DNA of 64,000 nt from Phycisphaerales bacterium (GTDB taxonomy: Bacteria; Planctomycetota; Phycisphaerae; WQYP01), in assembly GCA_009781185.1 (NCBI GenBank), contig WQYP01000001.1:20102-84101 (forward strand). Reading direction: 5' to 3'. Made by a program: the position numbers and the translations under genes. The notes under the pieces are model-generated. The model searched no databases and had not been told where the DNA came from. It worked only from the letters and a program-made list of their open reading frames with translations. Within the stretch, counting starts at the first letter, position 1; every line of letters starts with the position of its first letter. Positions 35,759 to 42,257 of this stretch are shown here, piece after piece.

Positions 35759-36469
35759 TCAGGGGTTAACATGGTGAAGCTGTACGTCTTCCGGGACCAG
35801 CGTGATTTGCTGGCCGTCCTGGACGAGTTGGCCGTTTCGGTAGGCCATCACGCAGGTGGAGCCGTCGGCGACGCCATGCACTTTGCCGGGCAAGCCTTCG
35901 GGGAGACTGGCGAGGTAGCAGCCATCAGGATCGTAGCCGAAGCACAGTGGCCTGCCCCGGCGTACTATCAGCAATCGCGCTGGGTTGCGCCAAACTCCCA
36001 GAATCGCCTGATCGCCCAAGGTTTGGTTGGCCGTCCATGCGGCTCGCTGCGCGACGGTGCCGGAGCAGCGTTTCATCAGCAGGCCGAGGATTTCGCTGTC
36101 GCACTGGCTTTGCGGATGCAGGCTGTAGTGGCGGACCAGATGGTCGTGGTTGAAGACGACGCCGTTGTGGACGATTTCGCCGCGACCGGCGGGGTGGGGG
36201 TGGTTGTTGCGGTTGTCGGCGGGGGAGCCGTGCGTGGCGAAGCGGCAGTGGCCGACGAGGACGACGGCGTTACGGCATTGCTCAAGGTCGTCGAGATAAT
36301 TTTGCGCCGGGCCTTGGCGTTTGTATGTGTGAATGATGCCGCGATGGTTGAGCCAGGCGAGGCCGAAGGCGTGTTCGCCGCGTGTCTGCGTCCGCAGCGC
36401 CAGGCGGCGAAGTCTGGCGATATCCGGGCCTTTTCCTTCGCGTGTAATGAATCCGAAAACTCCGCACAT
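35759..36469 (-). CDS. Class II (Ntn) glutamine amidotransferase
   Basis: N-terminal MCGVFG, RG..AFG, GHCRFATHG, NNHP, HNG, CDSE. Confidence 0.9.
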   Translation of the reverse strand: MCGVFGFITREGKGPDIARLRRLALRTQTRGEHAFGLAWLNHRGIIHTYKRQGPAQNYLDDLEQCRNAVVLVGHCRFATHGSPADNRNNHPHPAGRGEIVHNGVVFNHDHLVRHYSLHPQSQCDSEILGLLMKRCSGTVAQRAAWTANQTLGDQAILGVWRNPARLLIVRRGRPLCFGYDPDGCYLASLPEGLPGKVHGVADGSTCVMAYRNGQLVQDGQQITLVPEDVQLHHVNP

Positions 36470-36547
36470 GGTCATCTCCTGTTTCAAAAATCCCTGTTCC
36501 AAAAAGCCCGGAGCCATCCGCTCCGGGCGGGAGTAAAAAAATCTGCT

Positions 36548-37405
36548 TTAGGCTTGGGCGTCGTATTTCGCCGCCAAGCGTCGGAATTCGCTTTTGATCT
36601 GGTCTTGCGGGATGATGTCGCTGATCCAGCCGTATTGGGTGCCGTTGTGGATTCGGGCGTATCCCGCGCCCCAAGCGAGGTATCCCATCAGGCGTTCGGC
36701 TTCGCTCGCGCCTTCGCCGGCTTTCTTCCAGCCGCCTTTGAGGGGTTTGGGATTCCATGTTGGCGTCCGCTTGGCGTTGATCGCCCGTTCGACCAATCCG
36801 AGGCAAACCTGAATCCAGCCGATCACCTTGACGGCGCTGGTCGAGCCGGAGAAGACTCTGAACTCCACCGTATCGCGGCGTCCGTTGGCGAGGTTGGTCA
36901 GGTTCAAGGCGTGGTAGCGGCTACGGTCGAGGGTTGGTTTTGCTTTCTTGGCGTCCCCGTATTTGCGGACCCCGCCGCAGTACATCCCGCGTTCGCGGCT
37001 CTTGGTTCCGGTGATCGCGTAGAGGCCTTTTTCTACGTAGGCGACGATGGTCACCAGTCTGGCCAAGGCGTCGGCGGGAAGACTGCGGGGCCATCCTACG
37101 TGAGCGTGAAATCCCGTACTCGCGTTCACTCGGAATCCTTTGGCTTCGAGCGTTCGCAAAACTTCGGCGACCTGTGCCAATCCTTCTGCGCCGCGGAGGA
37201 TCGGGCTTACTATTTCGCAGGCCTGTCCGCCGGGTATGTTGCGGGTATCAATCGAGGCGTCGCGTTCGGCGGTCCAACCCTGCGGCAGGTACGGCACCTG
37301 AATTCCGTGGTGGTAGGCTCCGATTCGCAGTCCGTCGTTCTCGATAGTGCTTCGCGGGGCTATGGTTTCGATCTCGATTCCGAAGGTTAGTTCGCTTGCG
37401 TTCAT
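36548..37405 (-). CDS. Amidoligase (COOH-NH2 ligase, Amidoligase_2-like)
   Basis: TFGIEIE, W....DASI, EIVSP.L, VN.STGFHAH, RY.ALN, TVEFR. Confidence 0.9.
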   Translation of the reverse strand: MNASELTFGIEIETIAPRSTIENDGLRIGAYHHGIQVPYLPQGWTAERDASIDTRNIPGGQACEIVSPILRGAEGLAQVAEVLRTLEAKGFRVNASTGFHAHVGWPRSLPADALARLVTIVAYVEKGLYAITGTKSRERGMYCGGVRKYGDAKKAKPTLDRSRYHALNLTNLANGRRDTVEFRVFSGSTSAVKVIGWIQVCLGLVERAINAKRTPTWNPKPLKGGWKKAGEGASEAERLMGYLAWGAGYARIHNGTQYGWISDIIPQDQIKSEFRRLAAKYDAQA

Positions 37406-37425
37406 CTGTGTTCTCCTTTATATGG

Positions 37426-37478
37426 TCGCATGTACATAATACAATGTGTATAGAACACATCAGGTTAATTCCATATTT
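37426..37478 (-). promoter_or_regulatory. Repeated promoter, copy 2
   Basis: Shares the 21-bp tcgcatgtacataatacaatg and a catca.gtt.a.tccatattt block with 35672-35724. Confidence 0.7.
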
Positions 37479-37579
37479 AATCTGTCTTATTTCGGAGTCT
37501 AGCTATGTGAAGTCAAACGGTTGGCTGAAAAAAGCATAAAAAAGGCTCTTTGACATCTGAATACTCCTCAGGAATGTGG

Positions 37580-38800
37580 TCAGGCCGTCTTTGGTGAAGG
37601 CGGTTTTGATTGGTAGTCCCGCTGATCGGTGCAGATTCGCCATGCGATGCGAGCGAGTTTGAGACTGACGGCGGTGACTGCTGAGAGGTGGTGGATGCCT
37701 CGTTTGCGACGTTTGAGATAATGGCGTTGCAGCGGTCCTTTGGATCGCACCGCGACGAAAGCCATTGTCCACAGGGTGTGCCGCAGATGCGGTGATCCAC
37801 GCTTGGAGATATGTCGGCGTGACGCTTCAAACTGTCCAGTCTGGTAACGTGTCACGTCGAGTCCCGCGAATGCCACGAGTTGCTCGGGTGTTTTGAAGGT
37901 GCTGATGGGATCGGTTTCGCCAAAGAGGCTCACAGCGCGGATCGGATTACTGCCGGGCAATGTCAACAAGTATCCCGGCAGGCGTTCGCAAAGCTCGGTG
38001 ATTTTCCCTTCGAGTTGCTTACGCACCAATGTTGTTGCGTCGAGCTGATCGAGCAAGGTGCGAATGCCAACTTGCATGCCTTCGAGTCCTCGTCGCATGC
38101 CGATGGACACTTGTGCCGAGGTACGGATGGCTGCTGCCTCTGTAGCTCCGAAATGACCGTGCGAAGCTTTTCGCAGCAGTTCGGCAAGCGTTTCATGGTT
38201 CATGGTCAGCAGGTCTTCTGGCGTTGGTGCGGCACGCAACAGTGCTCGACCAGTTGCGCCCAGCGGCTGACTCATGTAGGTCTCGAACTCCGGCCAGACG
38301 CATTCGAGCCTGGAGTGGATGAGTAGTTTGATACGTGTCCGCTGTTGGCCCAAGGTGTACCAGAGTCGCGTGAGCTGTCGGCATGTCATGGCCAGGTCGT
38401 CGGGAATCAGCGCGGGCTTTCCCTCGCCGTTGCGTACCAACGTGGCGATGTGGTTGGCATCGCTGGTGTCGGACTTATGCTTGCGGATGGCGTTCTTGAT
38501 CTGCTGTGCCGATTGCAGGGGATTGAGCACCTGCTGGGTGTAACCCCAGCGTTGAAGTTGGTCATGGAGGGCAAACCAGTAATGCCCGGTGGCCTCCATG
38601 CCCACCAATATCGGCGCACCGTCGACAGCCTCTTGCAGGCGTTGATGCAGGCGTTTTAAGCCTTCGGCGTCGTTGGTGAAGGCCAGCGTTTTGATCAGTG
38701 GCTGTCCCTGTGCATCGAGCAGGCAAGCGACGTGTTTGCTCTTGCCAACGTCGATTCCACAGAAATATGCAAAGCGTTGCGACATGCTTATTTTCGACAT
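37580..38800 (-). CDS. IS110 family transposase/recombinase (DEDD RuvC-like plus Tnp20 domain)
   Basis: GIDVGK, GMEATGHY, KSDTSDA, L.AFAGLD....TG, ISKRGSPHLR. Confidence 0.95.
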   Translation of the reverse strand: MSKISMSQRFAYFCGIDVGKSKHVACLLDAQGQPLIKTLAFTNDAEGLKRLHQRLQEAVDGAPILVGMEATGHYWFALHDQLQRWGYTQQVLNPLQSAQQIKNAIRKHKSDTSDANHIATLVRNGEGKPALIPDDLAMTCRQLTRLWYTLGQQRTRIKLLIHSRLECVWPEFETYMSQPLGATGRALLRAAPTPEDLLTMNHETLAELLRKASHGHFGATEAAAIRTSAQVSIGMRRGLEGMQVGIRTLLDQLDATTLVRKQLEGKITELCERLPGYLLTLPGSNPIRAVSLFGETDPISTFKTPEQLVAFAGLDVTRYQTGQFEASRRHISKRGSPHLRHTLWTMAFVAVRSKGPLQRHYLKRRKRGIHHLSAVTAVSLKLARIAWRICTDQRDYQSKPPSPKTA

Positions 38801-38820
38801 GAATAGATTCCTTTATGCGT

Positions 38821-39011
38821 GCTTCCATCGGCAGCCCCATGTCCTCGCTCAAACTCGCGATCTCATACGTGATCCGCAGCGTTGGCTCCCAGAGGGAGGC
38901 CACCTGCAACTAGCTCATACGCGACGCCTTGAGAAGGCCAGGGCGTGACAGTCTCCAAAACGCGGCTGATACCGCAGATTCACGGGGCGTCACCGATGCC
39001 CTGATGGATGC
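38821..39011 (-). ncRNA. Bridge RNA (target- and donor-binding loops)
   Basis: Two stem/internal-loop/hairpin units with guides GTGAATCT and TTTTGGAGACT (target), AGCTAGT and TATGAGAT (donor), matching the junction sequences. Confidence 0.8.
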
Positions 39012-39021
39012 TCCGAAAACG

Positions 39022-39426
39022 TTAATTGGTCTTGACGGTAAATGCGTTGACAAGCTGCTCGATGCCGACGCACTGGGCGGTGAAGTCCGGTGCGTCGTGA
39101 TTCACGGGCAGCAATTGATAAAAGCCGTTGGGACTCGTGACGCTGTAAGGATCGAAGAGCAGCAGGCCGAGTTCGACGAGCCGATCTCTCGCAACAGTGA
39201 AGGCTTGTGCATCAAGTCCGAGCAGATCGCTGATGCGCTCTTGCCTGTAGAACGACACACCGTTTTTATCCGCCGCCAGCGTGAGGAACAGATAAAGACT
39301 CTGCTCCTGCGTGGTCATCACGGCGAGAAAACCGTTGCGGAGCAAACGATGGTCGATCCAGGCAAACGATCCCTGAATGCGTCTGAGACGCTTGGGATCA
39401 GGAACGTGGTAAGGCGTTTTGGGCAT
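39022..39426 (-). CDS. Winged-HTH protein (replication-initiator N-terminal-like) inside the IS110 element
   Basis: GGAG RBS; SFAWIDHRLL, LYLFL...AD..GVSFY...I..LL.L....F..AR..LVELGLL. Confidence 0.75.
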   Translation of the reverse strand: MPKTPYHVPDPKRLRRIQGSFAWIDHRLLRNGFLAVMTTQEQSLYLFLTLAADKNGVSFYRQERISDLLGLDAQAFTVARDRLVELGLLLFDPYSVTSPNGFYQLLPVNHDAPDFTAQCVGIEQLVNAFTVKTN

Positions 39427-39748
39427 GACGAGTTCTCCATGCGACCGGTTCCGGCGGCTGCTTTTACAAAAAGTTTTCAGCCGCTGATTCTGTCGGTCAA
39501 TGGACCCACCCGTCGCTCCCCTCCACGCGACAACTTGAGAAAAACGAGAAGAAAAAAGAGATTTTTGCAGAAAAAGTAGAGTCATTGCAATTCCTGAGGA
39601 GTATTCGCGCCGCCGCGCCAAGTAGAAGTTGAAGAAAATTCAATTGCTACAAAGCACTGTGCGAGAAGTAGATAAAGAAGAAACCGCAGTCCCGAAGGAC
39701 TGCACTAACCTAAGTCCTAACGGACTGCAATATATGAGATTCATAACG

Positions 39749-39982
39749 GTGAGCAATGTCCCAACAGCCTCCCCTGCCCCCGCATCCGCAAAGGTGGCAA
39801 ATCCCGCTGCGCTCACGGCGGCGCAGTTGGCGAGGGCGCTGGGGATCGCGGAGGAGCGGGTTCATCGGCTCGTGGCGGATGGTGCGCCGGCGGCGGCGAA
39901 CGGGACGATTCATCTGGTGCATTTTGCGGCGTGGCTCAATCGGAGACTGAAGGAGCGGGAAGGAGGGGGCGATGGCGATTGA
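39749..39982 (+). CDS. Small HTH protein preceding the terminase (small-terminase-like)
   Basis: GTG start; NPAALTAAQLARALGI...DGAP...GTIHLVHFAAWL; overlaps the terminase start. Confidence 0.6.
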   Translation: MSNVPTASPAPASAKVANPAALTAAQLARALGIAEERVHRLVADGAPAAANGTIHLVHFAAWLNRRLKEREGGGDGD

Positions 39983-42257
39983 TCCGGCGAAAATTTCGCA
40001 GAGCGAGTTGTTGCAGTTGATTAACGGGACGCCGCAGGGAACGGTGTTGACGCGGTCGCGGCTGCGCAGGCAGATGGATGCGGGGGGGATTAAGTTTGGC
40101 GACGGTACGCATATGCATCTGGTGCGGTACGTTCGCTGGCTCGTGGAGCAGCTTGAGCGACCGCTTCCGGTAAGAACGGACTACGCGGAAGCAAAGAAGA
40201 GGCAGGCGTTGCGGAATCGCAGCGCGACGAAGGCGGCGCAGGATATTTATCCGGTTCCGCAGATTGAGAGTTACACACGCCGAAAGGAATGCGGGGAATC
40301 GTTCCGGGCGTTTTGTGAGACGTATTTTGCGTCGGCGTTCCACAGGAATTGGTCGGACGATCATTTGCGGGTGATCAGCCGAATCGAAAAGGCGGTGAAA
40401 GAAGGCGGGCTGTTTGCTTTCGCTATGCCGCGTGGCAGCGGGAAGACGACGCTTGCGCGTTGCTCGGCGCTGTGGGCGGTGCTGTATGGCTACAGGCCGT
40501 TTGTGTGTTTGATCGGGGCGGCGGATGATCGGGCGAAGGAACTTTTGATTCCGATCAAGAAGCACATGCTGGAAAATCCGCTGCTGCTGGCGGATTTTCC
40601 GGAGGCGGTTCATCCACTGCGGGAGTTGGAGAATAGCTCGAAGCGGCAGCTTCAACAGCACATCGAAGGGCGTTTGACGCATGTTCACTGGGGACAGGAA
40701 AAACTGGTCTTCCCGACTATTGAAGGGGATCACTTGCCGTCGGCGCTGCGGGAGGATGGTTACGATGTGAGCCCGTCTTGCGGCTCAATCATCACCACCA
40801 CCAGCTTGGACGCCAATATGCGCGGGCAGCAGCATACCCGTGCGGATGGTTCGATTATTCGTCCGTCGCTGGTTTTGTTGGACGATCCGCAGACACGGCA
40901 ATCGGCGGCGTCACCGACGCAGACGAAGCGCCGGATGGAACTGCTCAACGGTGATGTGCTGGGCATGGCCGGTCCCGGTGAGCAGATCGCGGCGGTGCTG
41001 ACCTGCACGAAAATCTACGACAACGACCTTGCCGACCAGGTGCTCGACCGCCAGAAGAACGCCGAGTGGGACAGTGAGTGTACGAAGCTGGTGTATGCGT
41101 TCCCGAACGATGAGAAGCTGTGGGCCGAGTATCGTCACATTCGGGAGCGGCAGGGACATGCAGCGGCGACGGCGTTCTATCGGGAGCGTCAAGCGGAGAT
41201 GGATGCCGGGGCACGGGTCGCTTGGGCCGAGCGGTACGATCACAAAACGGAGGCGTCGGCGGTTCAGCATGCGATGAATTTGAAGTTCAAGGTCGGTGCG
41301 GAGGCGTTTGCCAGTGAGTATCAGAACGAGCCGGTGATGGAACAGGTCAACGACGAGTTGCTCACGCCGGAGCAGGTCTGCGCGAAGGTGAATGGCTACG
41401 AACGCGGCGTGGTTCCGGCGGCTTGCACGAAGCTCACCATGTTTATCGACGTACACGACCGGCTGCTATTCTACTGCGTCTGCGGCTGGCAGGAGGATTT
41501 CACGGGCTACGTGGTCGATTATGGAACTTTCCCACAGCAGAATCGGTCGGGGTTTACGTTGGCCAACGCGCAGCAGACGTTGGGGCGGACGTTTCCGGGG
41601 AAAGGTAGCGACGGTGCGATCCACGCCGGACTCGAAAAACTCGTCTCCACCTACCTTGCTCGGAATTGGCAGCGCGGTGAAGGACTGATGAAGATCGACC
41701 GGGTGCTCGTGGACATGGGGTACAAGCCCGGCATCGTCGCGGACGTGAAGCGTAAGGTGGGGGGGGGTGGAGGGGGGGGGGCGATGATGGCTTCAAAGGG
41801 ACTGGGTATTCGTGCCAGCCGCAAACCGCTGTCGTCATATTCGCGGCATCCCGGCGAAATTCACGGGCATTACTGGTACGTGCCCAATGTGCGGAAGACG
41901 GGGGAGTTTCCGCATGTGCTGGTGGATGTGAATTATTGGAAAACCTTTGTTCACGCGGCGATTGGGACGGCGGCGGGGGATCGGGGGTGTTTGAGTCTCT
42001 TCGGTTCCGACGGGCGTGAGCATGAAATTTTCGCCGAGCACGTCGCTCATTCGGAGACGTGGGTGGAGACGATGGGGATGGGGCGGGTGGTTCATGAATG
42101 GATGGCGAGGCCGACGCGACCAGACAATCACTGGTTCGACTGCTTGGTGGGTTGCAGCGTGGCGGCGTCGCTGTGTGGTGTGAAAGTACCCGGCGAAAGT
42201 GCCGCCGCCCGTACACGTAAACGTTATTCGACGGCTGATTTACGGAGGAACAGTTGA
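39972..42257 (+). CDS. Terminase large subunit (GpA-like)
   Basis: AMPRGSGKTT Walker A, LLDDPQ Walker B, FASEYQNEP, MFIDV, DMGY, DNHWFDC. Confidence 0.9.
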   Translation: MAIDPAKISQSELLQLINGTPQGTVLTRSRLRRQMDAGGIKFGDGTHMHLVRYVRWLVEQLERPLPVRTDYAEAKKRQALRNRSATKAAQDIYPVPQIESYTRRKECGESFRAFCETYFASAFHRNWSDDHLRVISRIEKAVKEGGLFAFAMPRGSGKTTLARCSALWAVLYGYRPFVCLIGAADDRAKELLIPIKKHMLENPLLLADFPEAVHPLRELENSSKRQLQQHIEGRLTHVHWGQEKLVFPTIEGDHLPSALREDGYDVSPSCGSIITTTSLDANMRGQQHTRADGSIIRPSLVLLDDPQTRQSAASPTQTKRRMELLNGDVLGMAGPGEQIAAVLTCTKIYDNDLADQVLDRQKNAEWDSECTKLVYAFPNDEKLWAEYRHIRERQGHAAATAFYRERQAEMDAGARVAWAERYDHKTEASAVQHAMNLKFKVGAEAFASEYQNEPVMEQVNDELLTPEQVCAKVNGYERGVVPAACTKLTMFIDVHDRLLFYCVCGWQEDFTGYVVDYGTFPQQNRSGFTLANAQQTLGRTFPGKGSDGAIHAGLEKLVSTYLARNWQRGEGLMKIDRVLVDMGYKPGIVADVKRKVGGGGGGGAMMASKGLGIRASRKPLSSYSRHPGEIHGHYWYVPNVRKTGEFPHVLVDVNYWKTFVHAAIGTAAGDRGCLSLFGSDGREHEIFAEHVAHSETWVETMGMGRVVHEWMARPTRPDNHWFDCLVGCSVAASLCGVKVPGESAAARTRKRYSTADLRRNS

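Follow-up and report, generated by a model that had tools for sequence, protein, structure and literature searches.

A predicted bridge RNA with readable guides in an IS110-family element of variant architecture from a Phycisphaerales bacterium

The stretch of DNA analysed here (the window) comprises 64,000 nucleotides (nt) of the Phycisphaerales contig WQYP01000001.1. Positions 38,821 to 39,011 of this window very probably hold, on the minus strand, the bridge RNA of an IS110-family element that extends from 39736 to 37498 (minus strand) between two CT cores; from the sequence comparisons presented below, we put the probability of this reading at about 0.93. The original prediction, made by a model from the letters alone, had described a two-loop bridge RNA whose guides can be read directly, and this description is borne out by covariation throughout the family, both of the stems and of the guides with their flanks. 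The IS110 observation is real and its interpretation is essentially right, with the activity of the element as a prediction. What emerges is a known mechanism in a variant architecture, distinguished by a fixed extra gene and an internal position of the RNA.

Genome and metagenome contigs supplied 53 relatives for the comparison, whose recombinases share 47-79% identity with that of the window; together with the window's element and a second genomic copy (copy 2), they make a set of 55 elements. These elements are kin, with TCCTT and GAAAG recurring as guides in many of them, and therefore represent fewer independent cases than their number suggests. The geometry of the guides in IS621 (Hiraizumi 2024, PMC11208158) was used as the template. 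Target-binding loops were located by an explicit stem search across the elements. L102 and L104 yielded no target loop in this search, while L015, L096 and L116 were parsed off-register, and these elements were left out of the handshake and core counts. Left junctions could be parsed in 39 of the 55 elements and right junctions in 37, the other contigs ending too early. The components of the element, in the order in which they are read, are the following:

39739..39744, minus strand: left target half (LT) ATGAAT, in the flank; five Watson-Crick pairs and one G-T wobble with the left target guide (LTG) GUGAAU
39737..39738, minus strand: left copy of the CT core, preceding the left end in all 39 parsed left ends
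39427..39736, minus strand: left end and leader, starting CATATATT, placed by left-end conservation in relatives
39022..39426, minus strand: open reading frame 1 (ORF1), 134 amino acids (aa) plus stop, a winged-helix protein according to an AlphaFold 2 (AF2) model and Foldseek, with no assigned family
38824..39008, minus strand: bridge RNA domain, from the 5' strand TCCATC of the closing helix to its partner GATGGA
38976..38983, minus strand: LTG GUGAAU plus CU matching the core, GTGAATCT, on the 5' side of the target-binding loop
38953..38960, minus strand: right target guide (RTG) UUUUGG plus AG pairing the core, TTTTGGAG; pairs CT-CCGAAA with one U-G wobble
38951..38952, minus strand: target-loop handshake dinucleotide AC, complementary to the right-end GT that the 33 scored relatives carry, where the element in the window has GA
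38909..38915, minus strand: left donor guide (LDG) AGCUAGU, on the 5' strand of the donor-binding loop, matching AGCTAG(A) of the right end
38862..38867, minus strand: right donor guide (RDG) UAUG plus AG pairing the core; pairs left-end CT-CATA
38860..38861, minus strand: donor-loop handshake dinucleotide AU, pairing target positions 7 and 6 (T, A)
37580..38800, minus strand: IS110-family recombinase, 406 aa, with PF01548, PF02371 and NF033542; aligns to ISCro4 and IS621
37498..37579, minus strand: right end, with a -35-like TTGACT at 37516-37511 and the left donor half AGCTAGA at 37504-37498
37496..37497, minus strand: right copy of the CT core, placed by right-end conservation
37490..37495, minus strand: right target half (RT) CCGAAA, in the flank

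The ends of the element were fixed independently of the guides. They are placed at 39736 and 37498 because the left and right ends are conserved among the relatives and the DNA outside the conserved left end is unrelated between elements. The left end, CT-CATATA(G/T)T, was parsed in 39/55 elements, 831-1,090 nt ahead of the recombinase start, and the right end, TTGACT-N12-N-CT, in 37/55. A CT stands at every parsed junction (39 left, 37 right), and the core TCT that had been considered possible is therefore to be shortened, its preceding T being target position 7, a handshake position. In the window, the junctions read ATGAAT-CT-CATATA and AGCTAGA-CT-CCGAAA, with the same short core on both sides and no longer duplication of the target: ATGAATCT followed by CATA is found at 39744-39733, about 720 nt upstream of the RNA and beyond the 134-aa ORF, and AGCTAGA, CT and CCGAAA are contiguous at 37504-37490. 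The element of 2,239 bp defined in this way is larger than canonical IS110 and has the order left end, leader of about 310 nt, ORF1, bridge RNA, recombinase and right end. A 2.24-kb element with an extra gene was already implied, and left unstated, in the flank coordinates of the original prediction; this layout is correct and conserved across the clade. The RNA is hence not situated at the left end, as the leader and the 405-nt ORF1 intervene between 39736 and 39008. Such an internal position sets the architecture apart from IS621 and does not speak against the pairing logic.

The left end of the element also carries a -10-like TATATT at 39734-39729. Joining the right end to the left end, as deduced from the parsed ends, brings together TTGACT, 17 nt, and TATATT in the window or TATAGT in the relatives, and a putative junction promoter of the IS621 kind is present at the sequence level in both. 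IS621 has been described with a promoter formed at its joined ends (Hiraizumi 2024, PMC11208158; Durrant 2024, PMC11208160). From the sequence, excision would be expected to join the right-end TTGACT to the left-end TATATT over the 17-nt spacer, and the resulting junction promoter would transcribe ORF1, the RNA and the recombinase.

With the ends given, the guides can be compared directly to the DNA. LTG GUGAAU-CU (GUGAAUCU) shares seven positions with ATGAAT-CT and forms one G-T wobble, while RTG UUUUGG-AG (UUUUGGAG) forms seven Watson-Crick pairs and one U-G with CT-CCGAAA; LDG AGCUAGU agrees with AGCTAGA in 6/7 positions, and RDG UAUG-AG pairs CT-CATA in 6/6. The chance that all 6+6 flank bases adjacent to the two cores would pair is about 1/256 x 1/64, by a hand calculation with G-U allowed. 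The programmed target GTGAAT-CT-CCAAAA proposed from the first inspection is the correct reading of LTG and RTG. As for the accompanying suggestion that this insertion used an imperfect site, two wobbles are indeed present (rG-dT at position 1, rU-dG at position 11), without any true mismatch in the 14 nt.

Guides were compared with the flanks of their own and of other elements by scoring the contiguous run of pairs outward from the core. On the left, the mean run was 4.51 with the element's own flank versus 2.14 with the flanks of other elements (n=35), and on the right 3.75 versus 1.66 (n=28). For the cross means, pairs of elements with identical guides were left out. None of 5,000 permutations reached the observed value on either side, and own flanks consequently fit better. 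The informative cases, in which the guides differ, are copy 2, L005/L092/L101, L008/L009, L085, L119 and the window. The RTG/RT pair is UUUUGG/CCGAAA in the window, UCUCAC/GTGGGG in copy 2 and GAA/TTC in most others, while L005, L092 and L101 have RTG CCGUG with the flank CGCGG or CACGG (CGCGG in L005), L008 and L009 have UGG with CCA, and the left guide of L119 matches its flank in 10/10 positions. On the donor side, LDG and the right end change together, being AGCUAG/AGCTAG in the window, copy 2 and L085 and AGCUGG(U)/AGCTGG(T) in the rest; wherever both parts were parsed, RDG AUGAG pairs CTCAT. The 3' strands of the two loops share one layout of guide, AG, two bases and stem.

Two relatives deserve a separate description. 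L085, the closest relative (79% aa identity), is placed between two direct copies of TGTCACCCCCTCAC, inside a tandem repeat matching its LTG. At the left junction of L087, LTG UUCAAAUUUCU and the flank CAAATTTC-CT match only with a 1-nt slip, which could be either a natural imperfect site or a later change.

In IS621, the left guides (LTG and LDG) bind the bottom strand of their left halves by base pairing, and the right guides (RTG and RDG) bind the top strand of the right halves together with the core (Hiraizumi 2024, PMC11208158). According to this scheme, LTG, carrying the sequence of the left target half, would pair its bottom strand, and RTG would pair the top strand of the right target half; LDG and RDG would do likewise for the right end and the left end, joined in the excised circle. 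We infer the polarity of the paired strands, the cleavage next to CT and the role of the handshake in the window element from IS621 (Hiraizumi 2024).

Concerning the structure of the RNA, every motif listed in the original prediction is located where it had been placed on the minus strand. The target-loop closing stem consists of GTGACG (38993-38988) and TGTCAC (38950-38945), the sixth pair being G-U. It encloses a 12-nt 5' strand CCCCGTGAATCT (38987-38976), an apical hairpin of GCGG (38975-38972), TATCAG (38971-38966) and CCGC (38965-38962), and an 11-nt 3' strand GTTTTGGAGAC. The donor-loop closing stem, TCGCG (38924-38920) with CGCGA (38859-38855), surrounds TATGAGCTAGT, an inner stem TGCAG/CTGCG with a variable hairpin, and GATCACGTATGAGAT. 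The closing helix is TCCATC/GATGGA in the window and TCGATC/GATCGA or TTGTTCAG/CTGAACAA in other elements, with a mean longest helix of 6.6 versus 4.9 for shuffled 5' segments. It connects the RNA's 5' end with a site past the donor loop, and the RNA is therefore bounded at about 39008..38824.

RNAalifold on 15 sequences recovered the outer stem, the target-loop stem and the apical hairpin, with the guide strands open and with compensatory pairs in the stems. When the structure was written out on 46 sequences, 82.4% of the cells paired versus 37-48% with slid partners, and 0/500 shuffles reached the observed covariation score. In these sequences, helices P1-P5 are 92-99% paired, with compensatory changes in P2 (11, 18 and 1 sequences), P3 (5), P4 (3 and 1) and P5 (13 and 2). 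Helices P4x and P6, paired at 33-56%, are misaligned by length variation, and nothing was drawn from them. The folding and covariation analysis that had been recommended thus supports the stems, with the support coming from the comparison and not from the single sequence, where the minimum free energy structure is misleading and pairs LTG with RTG.

The assignment of the downstream gene to the family is straightforward. The protein matches PF01548 (DEDD_Tnp_IS110) with E 5e-33 over residues 14-170 and PF02371 (Transposase_20) with E 8.1e-20 over residues 278-361, and it scores 213.7 bits against a cut-off of 140 for NCBIfam NF033542, 'IS110 family RNA-guided transposase'. Its matches among solved structures are ISCro4 (9t56, E 1.5e-11) and IS621 (8wt6, E 8.7e-10). 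In the ISCro4 alignment, D17, E69, D111 and D114 coincide with the GIDV, MEAT and D..D motifs, and S332 in ISKRG, a candidate counterpart of the catalytic serine S241 of IS621, aligns with MSKAG.

The original prediction also pointed to positions resembling the handshake guides. In IS621, the two bases 3' of RTG and of RDG act as handshake guides towards positions 7 and 6 of the non-cognate DNA (PMC11208158), and in the window element they would pair these positions after top-strand exchange. In the donor-loop handshake, the first base forms a pair with target position 7 in 35/35 elements (G:C in 34, A:T in the window), and the second base pairs in only 6/35. This dinucleotide is GU in all relatives, where target position 7 is C, and AU in the window and copy 2, where the LTGs specify T; the AU of the window forms 2/2 pairs with the target AT. 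The target-loop handshake is mostly AC, with AU, GC or AA in few elements, and pairs the GT of the right end in 33/35, the exceptions being the window (GA) and copy 2 (GG), both with U in LDG. In the window 1/2 pairs form, the right end being GA and not GT. With respect to complementarity, the handshake claim accordingly holds in full for the donor loop, with position 7 paired in 35/35, and by half for the target loop. The extension of the right target guide, given there as ACT, is limited to AC, as the U pairs with the G of the closing stem; the GT complementary to this AC is also the one encoded by the LDG.

Several observations weigh against the reading of this stretch as a working bridge RNA of the element described. 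Unlike in IS621, some 725 nt separate the RNA from the left end. Its single-sequence fold is not unusually stable compared to shuffles (z = -1.04), and an Rfam 15 scan of 37300-39400 with E up to 1 gave no family for it. The target loop is present in one copy only, and the predicted target was tested on a single insertion, for which no exact empty site was found. Position 7 of the donor, at the right end of the element, is A in the window and G in copy 2 versus T in the 33 relatives scored, and both LDG (U) and the target-loop handshake (A) expect T. Moreover, the target-loop handshake A can pair its own, cognate target T7, a situation seen in only 2/36 elements. In IS621, cognate handshake pairing blocked strand exchange, and the mutation G166A strongly cut recombination (Hiraizumi 2024, PMC11208158); because of this effect of cognate pairing, the copy in the window may be a poor recombination substrate.

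These misfits of the handshake and donor positions could mean that the reading of the RNA is right and that the copy itself is decaying or weakly active, its RNA no longer directing efficient recombination. We consider this a possible, if rather unlikely, outcome. In its favour, the genome holds one full copy of the element, the other being without the left end and the ORF1 start, and the element was found in none of 44 other genomes of the same family, the single match there being a 26-nt stretch with E 7.7e-4. On the opposite side, the recombinase and ORF1 have intact frames, and the two promoter halves and the two cores have been retained. Furthermore, a donor position 7 other than T stops the donor-loop A from pairing its own donor, a condition of activity in IS621 (G166A). 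The three changes in the window lineage (target position 7, C to T; donor-loop handshake, G to A; donor position 7, T to A in the window and to G in copy 2) look like a three-way retuning that keeps non-cognate pairing and avoids cognate pairing on the donor loop. With T lost at donor position 7, the donor-loop handshake A no longer pairs its own donor; we infer from this one lineage that the loss removed a clash with the donor-loop A. The changes may thus be compensatory rather than signs of decay.

The second copy (L002), 81-82% identical, is located on contig C187, and its homology to the element begins at window position 39372. Upstream (G000:C187, minus strand, about 3425-3400), AAATTGTTGTAT-CAATAA matches 12/18 positions of the junction predicted by its own LTG and RDG, with a probability of about 0.03 by chance over about 140 positions (hand binomial). 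This stretch may be a decayed left junction with an internal deletion. Between the ORF1 stop and the RNA, copy 2 has, compared to the window, a 14-nt insert (GGGTTGTCCCCAAG) that forms a small GGGG/CCCC hairpin and resembles the LTG of copy 2 (GTTGT). Among the sequencing runs listed for this DNA, none is of RNA. Contigs of four runs (X1-X4) break inside the element; they reveal no empty site and no circle junction, with no joint at either 39737 or 37497, and carry no weight either way. Loose ends occur in them at 38630 and 38883, together with one 167-nt skip from 38653 to 38821 (side 24); these features probably derive from the paralogue or a third variant. At the loose end 38883 (runs X1 and X2), a short contig diverges within the donor-loop apical hairpin and is still self-complementary, which suggests a third element variant in the same samples.

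Two other readings concern the boundaries and the function of the RNA. The element could be a canonical IS110 of about 1.5 kb with its left end near 39011, just upstream of the RNA, ORF1 being a neighbouring host or phage gene. Canonical IS110 elements measure 1.0-1.6 kb (preprint 10.64898/2026.08.14.744561), and copy 2, which shares the ORF1 homology, has 14 extra bases between ORF1 and the RNA, where GTTGTCCCC resembles its own LTG GUUGUUCUCU. Yet the window sequence before 39011 (GTTTTCGGAG) is unlike LTG GUGAAUCU, whereas ATGAATCT-CATA at 39744-39733 fits both LTG and RDG. ORF1 accompanies 48/55 elements, the other seven being without the needed upstream sequence, the left end CT-CATATAGT stands upstream of ORF1 in 39 elements from unrelated contexts, and the promoter halves fit the 39736 junction only. 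Taken together, these findings make a canonical element with a neighbouring ORF1 very improbable. A left end at about 39011, where copy 2 diverges, was considered as a candidate during the analysis and dropped in view of ATGAATCT-CATA at 39744 and the left end conserved upstream of ORF1.

The RNA could also be nothing but a structured 5' leader that regulates recombinase expression, with its matches to flanks and ends due to chance or shared ancestry. Non-coding ends of IS110 elements were earlier proposed as regulators of expression (cited in Durrant 2024, PMC11208160), and with similar guides in many relatives the sequences are not independent. Against this, the guides differ between elements and follow their own flanks, as the permutations that excluded identical-guide cross-pairs demonstrate. 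In addition, the loops are unpaired while the stems covary, and the layout of guide, AG, 2 nt and stem in both loops corresponds to the structure of IS621. We therefore give a purely regulatory leader almost no credence and retain the bridge RNA of an element ending at 39736 and 37498.

With regard to targets, insertions of the clade are found in Shine-Dalgarno-like sites that precede start codons of the opposite strand by a few bases. The left guide of the family (..CTCCTT) corresponds to AAGGAG on the opposite strand, and the programmed site of the window, GTGAAT-CT-CCAAAA, to a Shine-Dalgarno-like GGAG. A start codon opening an ORF occurs 6-25 nt past the core in 24/31 left flanks; among flanks of at least 400 nt, this was found in 14/19 versus 26.6% at random positions (binomial P 2.5e-5). 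The window site reads TTTCGG-AG/ATTCATAACG-GTG, with the insertion 12 nt upstream of the GTG at 39749, which opens the gene on the target side:

39749..39982, plus strand: target-side gene of 77 aa with a GTG start and a weak helix-turn-helix (HTH) match; its Shine-Dalgarno region is hit, and it lies directly upstream of the terminase gpA gene

Members of the IS900/IS901/IS902 group of mycobacteria probably insert in one orientation between the ribosome-binding site (RBS) and the start codon. The neighbours at 35759..37405 (minus strand) and 39972..42257 (plus strand) comprise Amidoligase_2, a GATase_6 protein and a terminase gpA-type large subunit, and the element is therefore in a prophage-like region. 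The 77-aa target-side ORF is conserved directly upstream of terminase gpA in many viral contigs. In 66 related viral loci with the same terminase, 33 of which extend over all 1,500 nt of upstream flank, neither the recombinase nor ORF1 was found, which fits insertion into a prophage. The small ORF and the terminase recur in related phage contigs, where the upstream DNA is too diverged for an exact empty site and the amidoligase neighbour is missing; an exact 22-mer of the left flank gave 0 matches in viral contigs. The exact programmed target occurs nowhere else in the genome, where seven one-mismatch sites were counted versus about 5 expected by chance (hand estimate). The sole Rfam match in 37300-39400, freshwater-2 at 37403-37480 (minus strand), falls in the leader of the amidoligase gene, outside the RNA, and with 23.4 bits against a gathering score of 49.9 (E 0.92) it is probably due to chance.

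The fixed extra gene, ORF1, was found in 48/55 elements, the other seven having less than 600 nt upstream, too short to reach the conserved motif. Its position is fixed and kept across recombinases 47-79% identical to that of the window. No Pfam or NCBIfam family exceeded the threshold, the HTH_36 match with E 0.0018 staying below the cut-off, and searches against the sequences of solved structures gave only FitB-like matches with E 0.13 or worse, which were discarded. The AF2 model, with a predicted local distance difference test (pLDDT) score of 74.5, is a winged helix, for which Foldseek returned the N-terminal domains of RepA_N-type initiators (5kbj, 4pt7 and 4pql; E about 1e-4, template modelling (TM) score about 0.5), followed by MarR regulators. 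ORF1 has at least 2,363 matching protein clusters with E up to 1e-5, and among the best 120 of these the named ones are 'hypothetical protein', except for two 'predicted ester cyclase'; one neighbouring cluster bears the Atlas tag PF25888 WHD_DnaB for 12% of its members. Literature searches, together with passages of Durrant 2024 and Siddiquee 2024 and sections 5 and 6 of the cargo preprint 10.64898/2026.08.14.744561, revealed no account of a conserved winged-helix ORF in IS110 elements.

The leader of about 310 nt before ORF1 is conserved as well. In the window it contains three YTACTT repeats with 46-nt spacing (39671-39666, 39625-39620 and 39579-39574), an inverted repeat at 39643-39629 and a terminator-like hairpin at 39704-39685; in 24 leaders, YTACTT was observed 44 times versus 4.2 expected. 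The YTACTT repeats and the inverted repeat may be candidate binding sites of ORF1. Going further, the window element could belong to a distinct three-part IS110 lineage in which ORF1 (DnaD/RepA_N-like) is an obligatory partner, binding the leader repeats and controlling the junction promoter or shaping the donor end, with the three-way handshake retuning added in the window lineage. We put this forward tentatively, as a proposal that is somewhat doubtful.

Compared to known systems, the element resembles IS621 of Escherichia coli in its DEDD and Tnp recombinase and in an upstream RNA with target-binding and donor-binding loops, whose left guides (LTG and LDG) are in the sense of the left halves and whose right guides (RTG and RDG) are complementary to the top strand of the right halves. 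It shares with IS621 the CT core at both junctions and has putative two-base handshake guides 3' of RTG and RDG, and the donor-loop handshake G with donor position 7 T, as in wild-type IS621, is the norm in the window's family. On the other hand, the recombinase has 406 aa versus 326 aa in IS621, with distant similarity (E 8.7e-10), the RNA start is separated from the left end by the leader and ORF1, and the LDG of the window does not visibly cover the core. The window RNA has a helix closing its 5' and 3' ends; for IS621, a 5' stem-loop is mentioned (PMC11208158). Repetitive extragenic palindromic (REP) elements are the family target named in Durrant 2024 (PMC11208160), in contrast to the Shine-Dalgarno-like sites of the window clade. 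The ISCro4 transposase (PDB 9t56), compared on the protein level, is the best match among solved structures, with both domains aligned at low identity.

Elements of the IS1111 type with a seekRNA have an enzyme of the same family and RNA-guided target choice (Siddiquee 2024, PMC11187229), but their long non-coding end and RNA are on the right (Durrant 2024, PMC11208160) and those of the window element on the left. The cargo-bearing IS110 loci (preprint 10.64898/2026.08.14.744561) likewise exceed 2 kb and carry extra genes; unlike the one small, fixed winged-helix gene of the window, their cargo is variable, plasmid-derived and rich in resistance genes. IS900, an IS110-family element of 1,451 bp, has a transposase gene and, on the complementary strand, hed, an ORF that lacks its own RBS and start codon (PMC8141618); the available part of that source names no gene placed like ORF1.

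The known mechanism is unchanged by the findings on the window element and its clade. They extend it to a lineage far from IS621 (recombinase match E about 1e-9 to 1e-11), in which the guides of the bridge RNA are readable from raw sequence and the IS621 pairing scheme, including the position 7 handshake, holds for the donor loop in 35/35 natural elements. The natural variation of the handshake and of donor position 7 fits the rule of pairing the other DNA and not its own, which has so far rested on IS621 mutants. The guides of the clade specify Shine-Dalgarno sites beside start codons, and its conserved winged-helix gene, together with an RNA far from the left end, bears on the production of the RNA, on its regulation and on a possible need for a protein cofactor.

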